Virus record (IMG/VR): IMGVR_UViG_3300030098_004191
Span: 1-64,000 of that record
DNA: 64,000 nt
DNA from: a virus
Strand: one strand, 5' to 3'
Shown here: positions 31,614 through 42,057 of the stretch, one piece after another
How the letters are laid out: each line of letters opens with the position of its first letter
Position numbering within the stretch: position 1 is the first letter of the stretch
Made by a program: the position numbers and the translations under genes
Notes under the pieces: generated by a model
Databases searched by the model: none
What the model saw: only the letters and a program-made list of their open reading frames with translations
Told to the model about the DNA's origin: nothing

Positions 31614-31701
31614 AGGTTGATTAAGTCTTTATCAGTCTAGCAATACACACTTCTGAAAGAGTGGCATGTATGCCCCTGATAACCTAACTTAACCCCCCCA
31701 C
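31614..31701 (-). ncRNA. Putative structured leader/small RNA upstream of the DUF6267-like gene
   Basis: Nested stems GGUUAAGUU/GACUUAAUC, UUAUCAG/CUGAUAA, GCAUACA/UGUAUUGC, CACU/AGUG right after an early -10. Confidence 0.6.
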
Positions 31702-31754
31702 TCTTTTATAATACCAATAAAAAACCCCCTGTGGGGGGTTTAGTGGACACTTTC

Positions 31755-31985
31755 TTAAGTGGTTAGTGCGTCAAGTGTTTCCTGGGGAACTGTGGTAGCA
31801 TTAACGCCCTGTAACCACTTGTTAATGTGACGGGATGTTGTGACGGACCATTTGGTAGCAGTTCTTACGTATTTTGCCTGATCTGCTAGGTATGCTGCCA
31901 CGGGTGTTCTGTAAGAGAAAAATACCTGTGTGCCGTTACTGAGTGTGAGTTCAGTTTGGTTTGCTGCAATAGGGCGAAGTTGCAT
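31755..31985 (-). CDS. Conserved phage early hypothetical protein
   Basis: FFSYRTPVAA..WSVTTSRHINKWL motif; AGGAG SD. Confidence 0.8.
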   Translation of the reverse strand: MQLRPIAANQTELTLSNGTQVFFSYRTPVAAYLADQAKYVRTATKWSVTTSRHINKWLQGVNATTVPQETLDALTT

Positions 31986-32066
31986 AGATGCTCCTTTTGA
32001 TTACTTTCTTATAATACCAATAAAAAAACCCCCTGTGGGGGTTCGGTGGTCAGTTTGTGAACTGGT

Positions 32067-32471
32067 CTACTTAGAGACTAATTTCACTAACTGTGCGTGG
32101 TAGGGTTTCACTGCCTCAAATCCTTTGATAAGATCTGAAATCAATTCTTGGATTTCAAAATTGTGGATTTGCCAACGGGTCTGTATATCTTTGATATAAC
32201 GATCCGTTGAAATAAGACGGGCAGTAGAAGGGCGTTTGAGAGTTGTTTTCTTTGCAACGACCTTGCCACCTTTGAAAGTTGTGACAGTAACACGGGGTGA
32301 AACTGGTTTTTTTGCCTTTGCTGGTTTGGTTTCTCTTGGAGCGTCAAGCACTGCCTGAACTTCTTTGATTACCTTATCAACTCTAGCAGATTTGGTTGAA
32401 GTCTTACGGGTTCTGGTCTTACGTGCTTTAGGGGCAGTTACAGACTTAGAAGCGGTTGACTTAACAGGCAT
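32067..32471 (-). CDS. Highly basic K/T/A/P-rich protein (histone H1-like composition)
   Basis: Low-complexity basic N-terminal two-thirds, helical C-terminus; has its own promoter cassette. Confidence 0.7.
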   Translation of the reverse strand: MPVKSTASKSVTAPKARKTRTRKTSTKSARVDKVIKEVQAVLDAPRETKPAKAKKPVSPRVTVTTFKGGKVVAKKTTLKRPSTARLISTDRYIKDIQTRWQIHNFEIQELISDLIKGFEAVKPYHAQLVKLVSK

Positions 32472-32556
32472 AGGAATGAGTTCCGATGTTTACTCCCCTA
32501 TTATAAACATAAAAAAACCCCCGTAGGGGTTTTAGTGGACACTTTGTCAACTGGCT

Positions 32557-32793
32557 TTAGCAGTCGTTTAGGGGTGATCTGCCACGGTATGCCGTAAACG
32601 GTCTCTGTAACTGATCTTCCTGGCGAGCAAACTCACTTAGGAAGTAATCCACTGTGAATTCATTTTCATTACAAAATGTTTCAATTTCAGAGTAGATAGA
32701 TGCTGGATAGGAATTCATGTGAAAATCAATTGTGTTTACTTTAGGGAAAGAATTCATATTAGGCAAATGATAAGAACGAAGAGAATTAACCAT
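32557..32793 (-). CDS. Hypothetical protein (start uncertain)
   Basis: IETFCNENEFTVDYFLSEF motif; lies inside a cassette. Confidence 0.6.
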   Translation of the reverse strand: MVNSLRSYHLPNMNSFPKVNTIDFHMNSYPASIYSEIETFCNENEFTVDYFLSEFARQEDQLQRPFTAYRGRSPLNDC

Positions 32794-32807
32794 TCAGTTT
32801 GTTTCAT

Positions 32808-32939
32808 TTACCAATCAAAGTTTGAATTTTCGATGTAACTTTCTACATCAAATTTGTCATCTTTCATTTCAGGTAAATCAAAGATTTCACCTGGAGAGTC
32901 CATTAACTCCTGGAGAATTGTGTCTTCGTAATCATTCAT
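32808..32939 (-). CDS. Small acidic hypothetical protein (43 aa)
   Basis: MNDYEDTILQELMDSPGEIFDLPEMKDDKFDVESYIENSNFDW, directly after a promoter element. Confidence 0.65.
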   Translation of the reverse strand: MNDYEDTILQELMDSPGEIFDLPEMKDDKFDVESYIENSNFDW

Positions 32940-33014
32940 AATTGAGTGAAATTTGGTTGACTATTTAATAATAACAAAAAAATGCCCACTGTGGTGAAAC
33001 AGTGGACACTTTGT

Positions 33015-33194
33015 TTACTGGCACATGTCTTGGAATTTCTTCCATGCCATCGCTTCAACTGCGTCAAGTGTGCCAGTTGAAATTCTGCACAGTTCGCTCA
33101 TCTGATCACCCGTGAGTTTGTTAGACTTCATAAACTCATCAAATGACTCGTCAAAACAAGTTTCATAGAGTGCTTCGTGATGTAGGGTGCTCAT
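33015..33194 (-). CDS. Hypothetical protein (59 aa)
   Basis: MSTLHHEALYETCFDE...AMAWKKFQDMCQ; AAGGA SD; stop lies within the next element. Confidence 0.7.
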   Translation of the reverse strand: MSTLHHEALYETCFDESFDEFMKSNKLTGDQMSELCRISTGTLDAVEAMAWKKFQDMCQ

Positions 33195-33266
33195 AATTGG
33201 TTCCTTTACTACTCTTTAATAATACCAATAAAAAAACCCCTTTGGGGCTTTTGTGTGACAGTTTCT

Positions 33267-33461
33267 TTACTGTCCGTTACGGTACTCACCCATTAGGCAT
33301 TTACCGTACCAAATTTCAGAGTGTCCGTACTCTTCAGATAAATCGAGGCATAGACCCCAACATTCATCTAAAGTTCTGAAAACTGTGTTTTCATGTGGTG
33401 CCGATGCACACACGACAGCATAAGGGAATGCTGGATTGAAAGTGGTATTAGGATTAAACAT
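33267..33461 (-). CDS. Hypothetical protein (start corrected to 33461)
   Basis: MFNPNTTF...CWGLCLDLSEEYGHSEIWYG; the longer start overlaps the promoter element. Confidence 0.65.
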   Translation of the reverse strand: MFNPNTTFNPAFPYAVVCASAPHENTVFRTLDECWGLCLDLSEEYGHSEIWYGKCLMGEYRNGQ

Positions 33462-33524
33462 AAACACATTATACACACAAAACGACCCCTTTTGCAAGGG
33501 GTCTTGTGTCAGTTTGTGAATTGT

Positions 33525-33674
33525 CTAGAATCGGGGGTCGTCGTTTACCCTGATCAGTTCAGAGTTTGGGGGTGCTTGACACAGTGCGGTGTCAAGATCA
33601 TATGCACTGAATGTGGTTTCCTTTCCATCGGATGTTCTGAAAGTGTAATCAGTGGGGTCTTGAAATTGTCCCAT
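33525..33674 (-). CDS. Hypothetical protein (49 aa)
   Basis: MGQFQDPTDYTFRTSDGKETTFSAYDLDTALCQAPP...; abuts the upstream stop. Confidence 0.55.
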   Translation of the reverse strand: MGQFQDPTDYTFRTSDGKETTFSAYDLDTALCQAPPNSELIRVNDDPRF

Positions 33675-33842
33675 TTAATTATACTCCCAAAATGCGGGTT
33701 CGCAAATCTTTTCACATAGGGTGTCATAATCCTCTGAATTAATATCATCGGGGAGACCCAAATCGTTGAAGTATTTAATAATTTCAACGAGTGCAGTTTC
33801 TTCTGCTTCAGTGATACTTAGTGTTCGTACAGTTTGTGACAT
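33675..33842 (-). CDS. Hypothetical acidic protein (55 aa)
   Basis: MSQTVRTLSITEAEETALVEIIKYFNDLG...FWEYN, downstream of a promoter element. Confidence 0.65.
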   Translation of the reverse strand: MSQTVRTLSITEAEETALVEIIKYFNDLGLPDDINSEDYDTLCEKICEPAFWEYN

Positions 33843-33917
33843 TTAGTGCCTGTGATTTGTGTACAATGTTATAATAACAAAAAATCCCCACGAATGGGGG
33901 ATTTGTGTGACAGTTTC

Positions 33918-34166
33918 TCAACTGGTTGAATTGTTTACATTTTCTGAAACATATTGTGGTAAGGTGTTATTACAAATGACCTTGTAATTCCTGGCAAGTC
34001 TTCTATTAATACCATCAATCATCTGATCTTTAGTAACAACTTCTTTCTTCATAGTTTCGCCACTAAATGTTAATACCTTGAGAAACTTGTCTGGATTAAT
34101 AACATCATCCAACCAAGATTTAGTGGGATAAAAGTCAACAACCATGCTTCCAGATTGTAATCTCAT
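33918..34166 (-). CDS. Hypothetical protein
   Basis: 82-aa ORF bounded by two elements. Confidence 0.7.
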   Translation of the reverse strand: MRLQSGSMVVDFYPTKSWLDDVINPDKFLKVLTFSGETMKKEVVTKDQMIDGINRRLARNYKVICNNTLPQYVSENVNNSTS

Positions 34167-39319: not shown

Positions 39320-39817
39320 TTACCTCATGTATAAGTATCCACCTGCCCATCCGCAGTTTTGTGGATTAAGTACATACTCACGCTCTTTAATCACTCTCAT
39401 ATCATATCTTACATACTTTGCTGGAGACTTCCATGATGCTGCCTTGTAAATCTCTCCTGTTTTCTTATCAACAAAAGCATGAACACTTCCATCACGATAC
39501 TCATTTCTATCTTGGAATGTATCATAATCCTGTTGGATGATCTTATAATACTTCTTACCATTCTGTATTCTAAATCTCATCAACTTAGCAGTTCCATTAT
39601 CCATTGCATCTAACTGATCCTGAGCATACTTGGATAGTTCTTTCTTACTATCATCACCATTGAAGTATGCACTGTTTCTTTCAATCATTCTTCTGTGATA
39701 CAACTTGTAGTTCTCTGCAAGTGATTCACATAATTGCTCTGTCCACTCCAACACTCTTGTTTCAAGAGTTTTTGTCTCATACTCAGCACTTGTAAGTGTT
39801 GTTGTTTGAAATGCCAT
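39320..39817 (-). CDS. Conserved cyanophage early hypothetical protein
   Basis: GKKYYKI..SVHAFVDKKTGEIYKAASWKSPAK..WAGGYLY. Confidence 0.8.
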   Translation of the reverse strand: MAFQTTTLTSAEYETKTLETRVLEWTEQLCESLAENYKLYHRRMIERNSAYFNGDDSKKELSKYAQDQLDAMDNGTAKLMRFRIQNGKKYYKIIQQDYDTFQDRNEYRDGSVHAFVDKKTGEIYKAASWKSPAKYVRYDMRVIKEREYVLNPQNCGWAGGYLYMR

Positions 39818-39900
39818 AAATGCTCCCTTGATTGTTTACTCTTATATTATAGCAGTAAAAAACCCTCTGTGAAGAGGGCTTGTACCACTTATTCAAGTGT

Positions 39901-40014
39901 CTATAGATCGGTTCCTCCTGTCTCTACTACCTCTACAATGTCCTCAAGAACTGCTAGGATCTCATTTCCATTGTTAGTAGTGTCCAAAAGGAATTCTGCG
40001 AAATTAGGTGACAT
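39901..40014 (-). CDS. Small acidic peptide (37 aa)
   Basis: MSPNFAEFLLDTTNNGNEILAVLEDIVEVVETGGTDL; stop abuts the next element. Confidence 0.5.
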   Translation of the reverse strand: MSPNFAEFLLDTTNNGNEILAVLEDIVEVVETGGTDL

Positions 40015-40037
40015 GACTAAATTAGTGTCGGGTTTAC

Positions 40038-40250
40038 AAAAAAAGTATTGAGAGAGTGGGGCATCGACATAGGTTTCACCTATATGCCCAAATTTACCCT
40101 ATAGGAATCGCTTACACCTGAACCCCTACTAACACAACTCCTAACCAAAAATGGATGTATGTTGGTTTACAAGGACTTACAACAATAAGAGCGAATCGTT
40201 GATGTACGCCTTGTGCTTTTGGGTATAGGAACCACTTATCTCTCAACTTC
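40038..40250 (-). ncRNA. Putative ~210-nt multi-stem structured RNA
   Basis: No credible ORF; 13-bp closing helix, several internal hairpins, possible loop-loop pairing, promoter element upstream and U-tract downstream. Confidence 0.7.
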
Positions 40251-40299
40251 TATAGTATAGCAGTTTTACGTCATGCTTCAAGGACGGATGTTACAGTTC

Positions 40300-40734
40300 T
40301 TAAGCTGGCACACCAGATGGAATTTCCTTCGGAACTACGTTAGTCTGAAGAACCTCTGTGAAATCCTCATTATACTTCTGATCTATGGCAAAACATTCCC
40401 ACTGATGATCTAATGTAAAGATGTAAACAAATTCTGCATCATTAGCAGGATTCTCTACATAATCATCAAAGTTTAGATCCAAACGTGGTTCAGTATTGTC
40501 TCCTCTGTCATTATAATATTGAACATGAGGTTCTACCTCATTTCTATCCCAATCTGTATCAGAATCACAGCATGAAATGTCTCCACCATCAAGTAACTCT
40601 GCAACCTTCTCTCTTGTGTTAAACTTTGCATTTAAAGTAACACCTAGCCATTGAGGATAACCATCCCAATGATGATACACAGATAGAATAGCACCATCCG
40701 CAAGTTGTAATCCAATCCTTGATCTTGTTGCCAT
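40300..40734 (-). CDS. Conserved phage hypothetical protein
   Basis: MATRSRIG..SVYHHWDGYP..L..GGDIS..Y..RG..EFVYIF. Confidence 0.8.
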   Translation of the reverse strand: MATRSRIGLQLADGAILSVYHHWDGYPQWLGVTLNAKFNTREKVAELLDGGDISCCDSDTDWDRNEVEPHVQYYNDRGDNTEPRLDLNFDDYVENPANDAEFVYIFTLDHQWECFAIDQKYNEDFTEVLQTNVVPKEIPSGVPA

Positions 40735-41062
40735 TTAAAAAAAGGGGGTTAAAAAACACGTGGGATGTTAGTTCTTTCTTCGGTTGCGAACCGAGAGGCA
40801 CATCCATCTCCTCGTTTTTGTGTGTGGGACTTACAACTTCAAAACTGTCTTTTCAGATGTCTAGGACATCAGCAGTACAAGAGGTCTCCAAACATAAAGA
40901 GCAGTTTTCCACAGAATGAATCAAAGATCATCTGATTGTTGCTCACCCCTGCCTTGCGTTTGCCCAATGGTGAGAGAAACAAAAAACGGAGACAGTGCAT
41001 TACTCTTTCGGTCATGTGTCTGCTTCTGAGTCAGACTAGAAAGAAACCGTCTTTGTTTCCCA
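40735..41062 (-). ncRNA. Putative ~320-nt three-domain structured RNA (or tandem RNAs)
   Basis: No credible ORF; 15-bp, 13-bp and several shorter helices; 8-nt long-range complementarity; promoter element upstream, U-tracts downstream. Confidence 0.7.
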
Positions 41063-41070
41063 TGTGCTTA

Positions 41071-42057
41071 TTATAGTGCATCAAGCAATGGATTCCACTC
41101 AACCTGTGACTCTTTCTCAAGTGGCACAAGCCCCACTAGCGATTTGTTGAATAATGCTCTACCATCATCATTCAGATCAAATAGTATGTAGTTTCTACCA
41201 TTCAGTATGGCAGATCTACCTACTGTTCCACTACCAGCACAAGGATCTAATACTGTTGATCCTTCATTACTAAACATGTTCACAATCCTATTCAACAGTG
41301 ATATAGGTTTCTGTGTAGCATAATCTAACTTCTCTATACCTTGAATCTGTTTAATATCAGTCCATACATCCTTAACAGGAATACCATCCATTTCATCAAA
41401 ATACTTCTTGACTCTTGGAATACCTGTCTTTGGTGAATATTCAAGTCTATTATCTTCATCTAACATTATCATTCTTTCTTTTGATATATGCCATTGAAGA
41501 TTATTACCCTTCCATGTATATCTTAAGTTAGGTCTTGATACTACATTAGGTTGTCTATTAACTAATGCACTCGTTTGATATTTCTTATTACGATATGGAC
41601 AAGTCTTAGCTTTCTTAATAGTTTCAGGATCATATTCTTTATGTTCAGGATTGTAAATTGATTCTTTACCTTTCTGATAAACAATTATACTATCATGGTG
41701 ACGTTGTAATTGTTTCTTAGACTTGTGATTCCCACCTGAAACCCATACTATCTCGTTCTTAAATCTATTCTCACCAAATATATCATCTAGTACAATTCTA
41801 ATGTGGTGAGATACTTTTGGTTCAACATGTACTACGATATTACCAACATCACTCAACACTCTATAACATTCTAGTAGTAATGGTCTTATCAATAATTCCC
41901 TATAATCACTACTAGATTTAAACTTGTCATCAAAGTGATAAAAGTCTCTTCCAGTACAATAGGGTGGATCAACATAAATGAGATCCACCGAATTAGAATC
42001 TACTTGCTTAAGTAGTTCTCTACTGTCACCTATTCTATACTCGTTTAGCATTTTCAA
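41071..42057 (-). CDS. DNA methyltransferase, N6-A/N4-C beta class
   Basis: DLIYVDPPY, FKNEIVW, YATQKP, VLDPCAGSGT. Confidence 0.92.
   Translation of the reverse strand: MKMLNEYRIGDSRELLKQVDSNSVDLIYVDPPYCTGRDFYHFDDKFKSSSDYRELLIRPLLLECYRVLSDVGNIVVHVEPKVSHHIRIVLDDIFGENRFKNEIVWVSGGNHKSKKQLQRHHDSIIVYQKGKESIYNPEHKEYDPETIKKAKTCPYRNKKYQTSALVNRQPNVVSRPNLRYTWKGNNLQWHISKERMIMLDEDNRLEYSPKTGIPRVKKYFDEMDGIPVKDVWTDIKQIQGIEKLDYATQKPISLLNRIVNMFSNEGSTVLDPCAGSGTVGRSAILNGRNYILFDLNDDGRALFNKSLVGLVPLEKESQVEWNPLLDAL

Follow-up and report, generated by a model that had tools for sequence, protein, structure and literature searches.

Exchangeable structured RNA modules directly downstream of a predicted early promoter in P-SSM2-like cyanomyoviruses

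T4-like cyanophages are known to carry orphan structured RNA motifs, namely manA (RF01745), wcaG (RF01761), PhotoRC-II (RF01717) and glnA (RF01739) (Weinberg et al. 2010, PMC2864571; PMC9964418). T4-type phages also carry the promoter-early stem-loop (PeSL) cassette (Arbiol et al. 2010, PMC2839356; Comeau et al. 2014, PMC4122927), in which a GC-rich terminator stem-loop lies between or over the -35 and -10 elements, with the Shine-Dalgarno (SD) sequence and the ATG directly after (PMC2839356). Here we report on a gap of 336 bases (40735-41070, minus strand) between a methyltransferase gene and a gene for a protein of 144 amino acids (aa). It lies in a window of 64,000 nucleotides (nt), the whole stretch of DNA analysed, which is part of an 86-kb IMG/VR record (IMGVR_UViG_3300030098_004191) and whose locus was assigned by BLAST to P-SSM2-like T4-type Prochlorococcus myoviruses (Kyanoviridae). 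The genes surrounding the gap are all on the minus strand, as are all features described below. Our analysis revealed three structured RNA modules in the gap, termed A, B2 and C, in a locus that starts at an early promoter, has 5' and 3' ends that pair as a scaffold helix, is built of swappable and nested modules, and lies outside Rfam.

Like the four orphan motifs, the gap RNA covaries, is intergenic or within a 5' untranslated region (UTR), belongs to marine cyanomyoviruses and is known from comparative genomics only, its function being unproven. Unlike them, it starts at a promoter, has an end-paired scaffold with nested modules, precedes unrelated genes and gives no match to their models at E<=10. 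With the PeSL cassette it shares a strong sigma70-type early promoter, a hyperplastic early region and conserved non-coding break-points for modular shuffling, but it lies downstream of the promoter, measures 94-336 nt and is no terminator, and its internal loops are conserved. Membership of the PeSL group was considered and dropped, as the 16-nt promoter spacer holds no hairpin and the start codon is 336 nt away. Hairpins at the 5' end or of irregular shape set the lifetime and translation of messenger RNA (mRNA) in other systems, examples being the 5' stem-loop of Escherichia coli ompA and the early RNase III sites and gene 10 leader of T7. A 5'-end structure or long irregular hairpin in an early transcript is by analogy the likely working mode of the gap RNA as well, although there is no sequence or model relationship to these leaders, which have nothing to match its conserved unpaired bases or swappable inserts. 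The put RNAs of phage HK022 are promoter-proximal, cis-acting antitermination RNAs of two short stem-loops. They are comparable in that the gap RNA, too, is a structured RNA just downstream of an early promoter and would need no dedicated phage protein for its action in cis; in contrast to put, no terminator lies between it and the next two genes, and read-through control is not obviously needed.

Module A (94 nt, 40969-41062), recognised by a covariance model and by covariation, is a long irregular hairpin of three helices. P1 joins 41061-41047 to 40989-40974 (GGGAAACAAAGACGG/CCGU(U)UUUUGUUUCUC), P2 joins 41045-41039 to 41009-41003 (UUCUUUC/GAAAGAG), and P3 joins 41036-41032 to 41022-41018 (GUCUG/CAGAC). 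The loop L3 (ACUCAGAAG, 41031-41023) is the site at which relatives carry other modules as insertions; it is followed by the junctions J3/2 (ACAUGACC, 41017-41010) and J2/1 (UAAUGCACUGUCU, 41002-40990), and the module closes with a 3' tail UCACC (40973-40969). The consensus reads UGGGAAACAAA-nnnGG-U-[P2]-UA-[P3]-AC..AGAAG-[P3']-ACAUGAY-[P2']-GUAA-(10-25 nt)-CCnnn-UUUGUUUCUC-UCACC, and about 20 unpaired bases in it are invariant (UA, GAC...AGAAG, ACAUGA and GUAA). The covariance model, built from 16 sequences, found 61 instances in 84 sources and a further 28 in loci fetched with the core pattern. Among 55 distinct sequences 90.7% of the cells were paired, compared with 73.2% in column shuffles and 44-56% with slid partners, and 26 of the 27 pairs had changed on both sides (for example P3 CG:33/GC:15 and P2 AU:32/UA:20). 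As this alignment was fitted to the model, two independent checks were added against alignment bias. From a plain MAFFT alignment RNAalifold recovered P2 and P3, 8 of 11 pairs having compensatory changes, and in an alignment-free duplex test the distal P1 strands reached a mean of -7.25 kcal/mol with their own partner vs. -3.62 kcal/mol with a foreign one (permutation p<1e-4). Furthermore, the abundance of G-U pairs (GU:35 and UG:34 at two pairs) identifies the gene strand as the functional RNA strand. The original prediction for this gap had drawn a 15-base-pair (bp) closing helix and a GUCUG/CAGAC pairing in its domain A, and both are borne out by the covariation of P1 and P3. Its GAAA-loop hairpin was wrong, as GAAAGAG is the 3' strand of P2, and UUCUUUCU, taken to be unpaired, is the 5' strand of the same helix. 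Module A is present as a single copy in the window's contig, P-SSM2 and P-SSM5, and it also occurs in the Synechococcus phages S-SSM4 and S-SSM6b.

The modular organization emerges from the comparison of 80 IMG/VR loci fetched by their downstream protein, irrespective of upstream content, and of more loci fetched by DNA patterns. Set side by side, the upstream regions form a mosaic of sharply bounded blocks. Module A ranges from 49 to 172 nt among 39 distinct versions, and the inserts, 20-150 nt long, are always found between GAC(A) and (U)AGAAG in the P3 loop. The block that stands behind module A in P-SSM2 is nested inside module A in P-SSM5. In two loci (L056 and L034) the base of P1 alone is kept, around a plain loop or another interior, the simplest relative being L056 with a plain hairpin and then UUUUGUUUCUCU. 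In five loci (L237, L240, L254, L264 and L287) a different end-paired scaffold (GUUGAGAGGA...UCCUCUUAAC) surrounds the P2-P3 core. In addition, modules A and C are found without each other in relatives, and the order of modules differs. On this comparative evidence A, B2 and C are three self-contained structured modules, not one integrated RNA. The original prediction of one folded three-domain RNA rather than a spacer thus holds as regards a structured RNA but not as regards a single unit with a long-range contact, given that the modules are separately conserved, nested, reordered and placed before other genes. The contact had been proposed between UUCUUUCU (41045-41038) and AGAAAGAA (40779-40772), and the 8-nt complementarity is indeed exact. 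About 1.4 complementary 8-mers are expected by chance in 431 nt, and we reject the pairing because its 5' arm covaries with the local P2 partner, reading UUCCUAAC or ACUCAC in P-SSM2, P-SSM5 and most relatives, while AGAAAGAA is invariant.

Module B2 (142 nt, 40825-40966) has UGGG...CCCA ends, with CAAACGC on the 5' side and GUUGUAAGU on the 3' side, its borders being UGGGCAAACGC and GUUGUAAGUCCCA. P-SSM2 has a different block at this place; the window's domain B is this separate module, of which an exact 24-mer is common to 15 distinct contexts in other phages. There B2 may occupy the following intergenic region, come behind other modules or sit nested within the module A loop (L331). Fourteen distinct copies, 86% identical, were available, and only the variable sub-hairpins were testable. 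The hairpin CAG-UGAUC-UUU-GA(U)UCA-CUG (40934-40912), with four pairs changed on both sides, competes with helices predicted earlier for domain B, two of which, AAUCAGA/UCUUUGAUU and AAAACUG/CAGUUUU, find no support: each has no compensatory change and is broken in 4-7 of the 14 sequences at several pairs. A third, GCAAC/GUUGU, is without informative variation. Covariation does favour GAUGUC/GACAUC (40870-40856), likewise predicted, with two pairs changed on both sides; this hairpin has been wholly replaced twice, with the enclosing helix of the ACUG/CAGU type (40876-40873 with 40847-40844) kept. We also observed that the conserved AAGUUGUAA of B2 (40831-40839) is perfectly complementary over 9 nt to UUACAACUU in codons 9-11 of the downstream gene (40702-40710), which is probably chance because B2 also precedes other genes.

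Module C (52 nt, 40763-40814) begins with CGAGGAGAU, is 100% identical to P-SSM2 over 54 nt and was found in 69 distinct contexts. Its outer helix GGAUGU/ACAUCC (40805-40800 with 40768-40763) is invariant, and the flanks CGAGGAGAU and AAAGAACUAAC show no variation either. The inner hairpin UCGG/CCGA (40794-40791 with 40783-40780), already present in the original prediction, covaries, with four of five pairs changed on both sides and the versions UCGG/CCGA, UGGG/CCCA, GUGG/CCAC, GUGGGU/ACCCAC and GUAG/CUAC. The 5' side of the module holds an invariant AGGAG and two AUGs, and the frames that these open are not conserved as peptides. A small-protein start (MDVPLGSQPKK...) was plausible at first, since the three differences between P-SSM2 and P-SSM5 inside domain C are all third-position synonymous in that frame. 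It was ruled out by the wider sampling of 69 contexts, in which the variable positions change pairwise, preserving the hairpin but not the amino acids, and one variant brings a UAG into the frame. Directly 3' of module C lies the 6-nt palindrome CACGUG (40757-40762), and a 6-nt palindrome occupies this place in 69 of 69 contexts (GCUAGC 30, CACGUG 16, CUAUAG 10, CCUAGG 7, CCAUGG 5, UCUAGA 1; for example L001 1556-1561 and L002 1563-1568). The palindrome may be an RNA dimerisation site or a site acting at the DNA level. It was also considered as the target of the adjacent methyltransferase and discarded as such, because the enzymes of P-SSM2 and P-SSM5 are 99% identical while their palindromes differ (CCAUGG vs. 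GCUAGC).

Upstream of the modules, a perfect -10 hexamer TATAAT (41070-41075) overlaps the TAA stop of the methyltransferase gene, and a -35-like hexamer TGGAAT (41092-41097) lies 16 nt away; the latter reads TTGAAT in P-SSM2, AG-345-L05 and many relatives. This -35 matches the consensus at 3 of 6 positions only, and owing to its weakness the window's promoter was not called by a consensus scan. Module A begins 7 nt past the TATAAT. Of the 69 distinct contexts of module A, 51 have a TAnnnT hexamer whose end lies 5-8 nt, most often 7, before UGGGAAAC, so that the transcript should begin 0-2 nt before P1. The start at an early sigma70-type promoter, as originally predicted, is supported by the TATAAT directly upstream and by the kept spacing. 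A related observation is that the last ~20 residues are alike in two otherwise unrelated methyltransferases (...VPLEKESQVEWNPLLDAL, window 41071-41130, vs. ...VPVEEVAHTQLNPLEQVL, L001 1215-1278), whose 32% identity is confined to the C-terminal 87 aa; this shared end of the open reading frame (ORF) doubles as the conserved promoter cassette, with the -35 region and the -10.

At the other end, a U-/C-rich stretch (UUUUUUAACCCCCUUUUUUUAA, 40735-40756) without SD sequence runs up to the AUG and forms the translation initiation region of the downstream gene, which is preceded by ACCCCC-U(6-7)-AA-AUG regardless of the upstream module. At least eight ORFs that are unrelated to one another follow module A, among them phrog_1987, a DUF7717-like protein and small basic proteins, and each time the ORF starts 14-30 nt past the last module. 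In L223 (3243-3560), module A, a 47-aa basic ORF and a tRNA gene follow one another within ~250 nt. A consensus scan called no intrinsic terminator on the minus strand in 40735-41070, nor between the RNA and the gene, and a terminator after module A or C was dropped as a candidate. A terminator or attenuator has a short GC-rich hairpin with a U-run directly behind it; here the stem before the U-rich 3' strand of P1 is weak and encloses ~60 nt.

The modules are also represented in RNA libraries. Among 22 listed runs, twelve recorded as RNA hold parts of the stretch, and three studies, with four marine RNA libraries between them, yielded Logan contigs that cover A, B2 and C with 0-2 differences (0-1 for B2). 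Loose ends of these contigs at 40762/40763, 40815 and 40966 coincide with the borders that genome comparison gives for the modules. The summed word depth over the methyltransferase gene is far below that over the modules, and depth drops to background upstream of the -10, which is a weak hint; uncovered stretches and depth differences between parts were not used beyond it.

Regarding the gene context, P-SSM2 and P-SSM5 have the same order by BLAST, i.e., the methyltransferase, a gap of ~300 nt without annotated feature and the PSSM2_070 homologue. The upstream gene (41071-42057) encodes a 328-aa N6/N4 DNA methyltransferase (PF01555, E = 1e-38), while the downstream gene (40300-40734) encodes the 144-aa PSSM2_070 homologue (phrog_1987), a protein of unknown function with no Pfam family. 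The gap had been described as free of credible ORFs, and this is real: the ORFs inside it have 32-62 aa only, are unconserved and have no match in Pfam or PHROGs, and neither frame nor amino acids are maintained among homologues, the frame being broken or the changes non-synonymous. For instance, the frame of the 62-aa ORF gains a UAG stop in L058-type relatives, and a 48-aa ORF straddles a mosaic junction. ARAGORN found no tRNA or transfer-messenger RNA genes in 39500-41500.

A search of the whole window with Rfam 15 (all 4227 families, including manA, wcaG, PhotoRC-II, glnA, Downstream-peptide, Yfr1/Yfr2 and the self-cleaving ribozymes) gave no match at gathering thresholds, and at E<=10 only chance matches to small nucleolar, long non-coding and small RNAs on 40600-41200 and 39800-40700, in line with the earlier view that the RNA belongs to no recognised family. 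The literature on cyanophage non-coding RNAs, transcription start site maps and modular RNAs yielded no description of the modules, which are thus absent from Rfam and from the literature searched. In a check for host or other cellular copies, a scan of 185,579 genomes that needs an exact 18-base match returned six chance matches in unrelated bacteria, none of which fits the model. The motif GTAAGWCC occurs 11 times in the window vs. 3 expected, and all occurrences except two RNA copies are in coding sequence. Mimicry of the host small RNA Yfr1, which carries the motif ACUCCUCACAC (PMC2190773), was examined and rejected for the gap, from which the motif is absent; a one-insertion look-alike occurs only within a helix of a neighbouring RNA type. 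The 3' end of that type reads ACUCCCUCACAC, one insertion off ACUCCUCACAC, in some relatives (L003 2400-2411, L055 1393, L332 and L161), and leaders starting with AUCCUCACAC directly after TATAAT were seen in L041, L098, L102 and L103; this likeness could be mimicry or chance.

The surroundings of the gap hold further elements of this kind. In the next gap (~40038-40250), behind a second promoter TTGAAG-16-TATACT (40281-40254), lies a second promoter-proximal end-paired RNA of another scaffold type (GUUGAGAGA.../...UCUCUCAAU), with a B-type block carrying the same GUUGUAAGUCC and a GGUGAAACC hairpin, then a 37-aa ORF and a terminator. Homologues of this second RNA in L016, L029, L003 and P-SSM2 have extra modules, including the window's B2. 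The 37-aa ORF (MSPNFAEFLLDTTNNGNEILAVLEDIVEVVETGGTDL, 39901-40014), which L003, L016 and L029 have in conserved form, resembles PSSM2_071; no PHROG matches it, and it is probably a real small early protein. The window also contains PeSL-like cassettes on the gene strand (31695-33925 and 39838-39871), six to seven repeats of ~68 nt with AAAGTGTCCAC, a GC hairpin with U-run and a TATAAT-like hexamer, which fit the published PeSL layout (PMC2839356). Finally, module A has a second class (UGAGAAACAG...; L021, L059, L075, L082, L235, L255, L260 and L283) that is preceded by CTAAAGTGTCCTTATAG, which may be another promoter type or part of an upstream RNA.

We believe, with a probability of roughly 0.5, that an early cyanomyovirus mRNA has the gap as its untranslated 5' leader, a chain of three modules acting in cis, whose function we infer. 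This reading fits best because the RNA starts at a promoter, its 5' end is closed in a long helix, and an SD-less start region lies nearby before many genes. Module A would start 0-2 nt after the predicted transcription start, and its first bases would pair with the U-rich segment ~75 nt downstream (P1) and so enclose the P2-P3 core. The modules would evolve as recombining cassettes, with the scaffold kept and the P3-loop content and following blocks exchanged. Co-transcribed with the gene, the closed 5'-terminal structure would protect the early message from 5'-end-dependent decay, and the leader may insulate and present the SD-less U-rich start region 14-30 nt past the last module. The conserved internal loops are probably sites for a host or phage protein. 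A number of observations weigh against a cis-acting leader of this kind. The folding energy of the gap is no better than that of dinucleotide shuffles, the control that had been proposed for the prediction, either for the whole (z = -1.08) or for its parts (-1.39, -0.20 and -1.18); judged by this measure on its own, the prediction would have failed, and the case for an RNA rests on comparative evidence. In 18 of the 69 module-A contexts CTAAAGTGTCCTTATAG precedes the RNA instead of a spaced -10, which implies that the RNA is not always the first transcribed element, and some phages have homologues of the phrog_1987 gene without the RNA (L035, L038 and L045). One RNA-library contig reaches 32 nt upstream of the predicted start, and the contig cover is also compatible with carried-over DNA or read-through. 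In addition, a plain stabilising hairpin needs neither ~20 invariant unpaired bases nor a conserved P1 base, and a more specific role is therefore likely.

The invariant loop bases and the trade in modules suggest specific partners, and it is possible, if doubtful, that the modules act in trans as stable non-coding RNAs, released from the mRNA or accumulating next to it. Each swappable module would then be a separate site that binds or sequesters a factor of host or phage origin, for example a nuclease, ribosomal protein or defence sensor. The internal loops are asymmetric and conserved and have invariant purine-rich strands, as is typical of protein sites, modules change hands irrespective of the gene that follows, the RNA-library contigs are rich in module fragments, and the palindrome kept in six versions after module C could mediate RNA dimerisation; yet no terminator or processing signal was found between RNA and gene, an ORF starts within 14-30 nt every time, and no partner is known. 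More speculative is a cyanomyovirus RNA cassette system in which promoter-proximal scaffolds display swappable aptamer-like modules that would act in trans on host factors, as sponges or decoys for nucleases, ribosomal proteins or defence sensors, and in which module C could dimerise through its palindromic tail. We consider it unlikely that module A is a processing signal (an RNase III or RNase E substrate, comparable to the irregular hairpins of T7 early mRNAs) or a promoter-proximal attenuator formed by its hairpin and the U-rich P1 3' strand UUUUUUGUUUCUC, at which some of the transcripts would end. The ~27 stacked base pairs broken by asymmetric loops would suit such a role, as would a P1 3' strand that is kept U-rich while its 5' partner toggles A/G, and the L056 hairpin described above, but no terminator was called on the gap strand, the stem beside the U-run is weak and encloses 60-150 nt, and the U-run is poor in TGAGAAAC-class relatives.

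A riboswitch aptamer, module A or its P2-P3 core sensing a metabolite of the infected cell, seems quite improbable. The fold is aptamer-like in having covarying stems around invariant junction bases, it tolerates a peripheral insert of variable length, it occupies a 5' UTR position, and its core recurs in a different scaffold in five loci. The reading is weakened because the downstream genes (at least eight ORFs, of unknown function) are unrelated to each other and thus do not point to one pathway; moreover, P1 has 15-17 bp, no alternative pairing, terminator, sequestor or expression platform was found, and the known classes are unmatched. Very little speaks for conservation without a functional RNA structure, i.e., DNA-level linkers for recombination as in PeSL shuffling, or small proteins. 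The mosaic junctions do coincide with short boundary motifs that are conserved, the window is rich in PeSL-like promoter-terminator cassettes (PMC2839356), and open frames of 32-62 aa exist, but linkers leave the compensatory changes and strand-specific G-U pairs unexplained, and the frames, as noted, are broken or altered in relatives and without PHROG match. As for an integrated RNA of ~320 nt with three domains tied by the UUCUUUCU/AGAAAGAA pairing, the exact complementarity is outweighed by the covariation of P2, the changed 5' arm facing an unchanged AGAAAGAA, the separability of A and C and the chance expectation for such 8-mers, and we regard it as barely credible.

T4-like cyanophages are among the most abundant ocean viruses, and the usual treatment of their early regions is as a succession of small unknown genes. 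In this locus several hundred bases that would head early messages are conserved RNA structure, in an unusual architecture of scaffolds with nested, recombining modules. The 94-nt core hairpin, the 52-nt module that is identical between distant isolates and the covarying palindrome are testable objects, and since P-SSM2, P-SSM5, S-SSM4 and S-SSM6b are cultured and carry elements, experiments are possible. They may serve the study of how early transcripts are controlled or protected in hosts with few regulators. If the RNA cassette reading is true, these phages would swap RNA modules by recombination as they swap genes.

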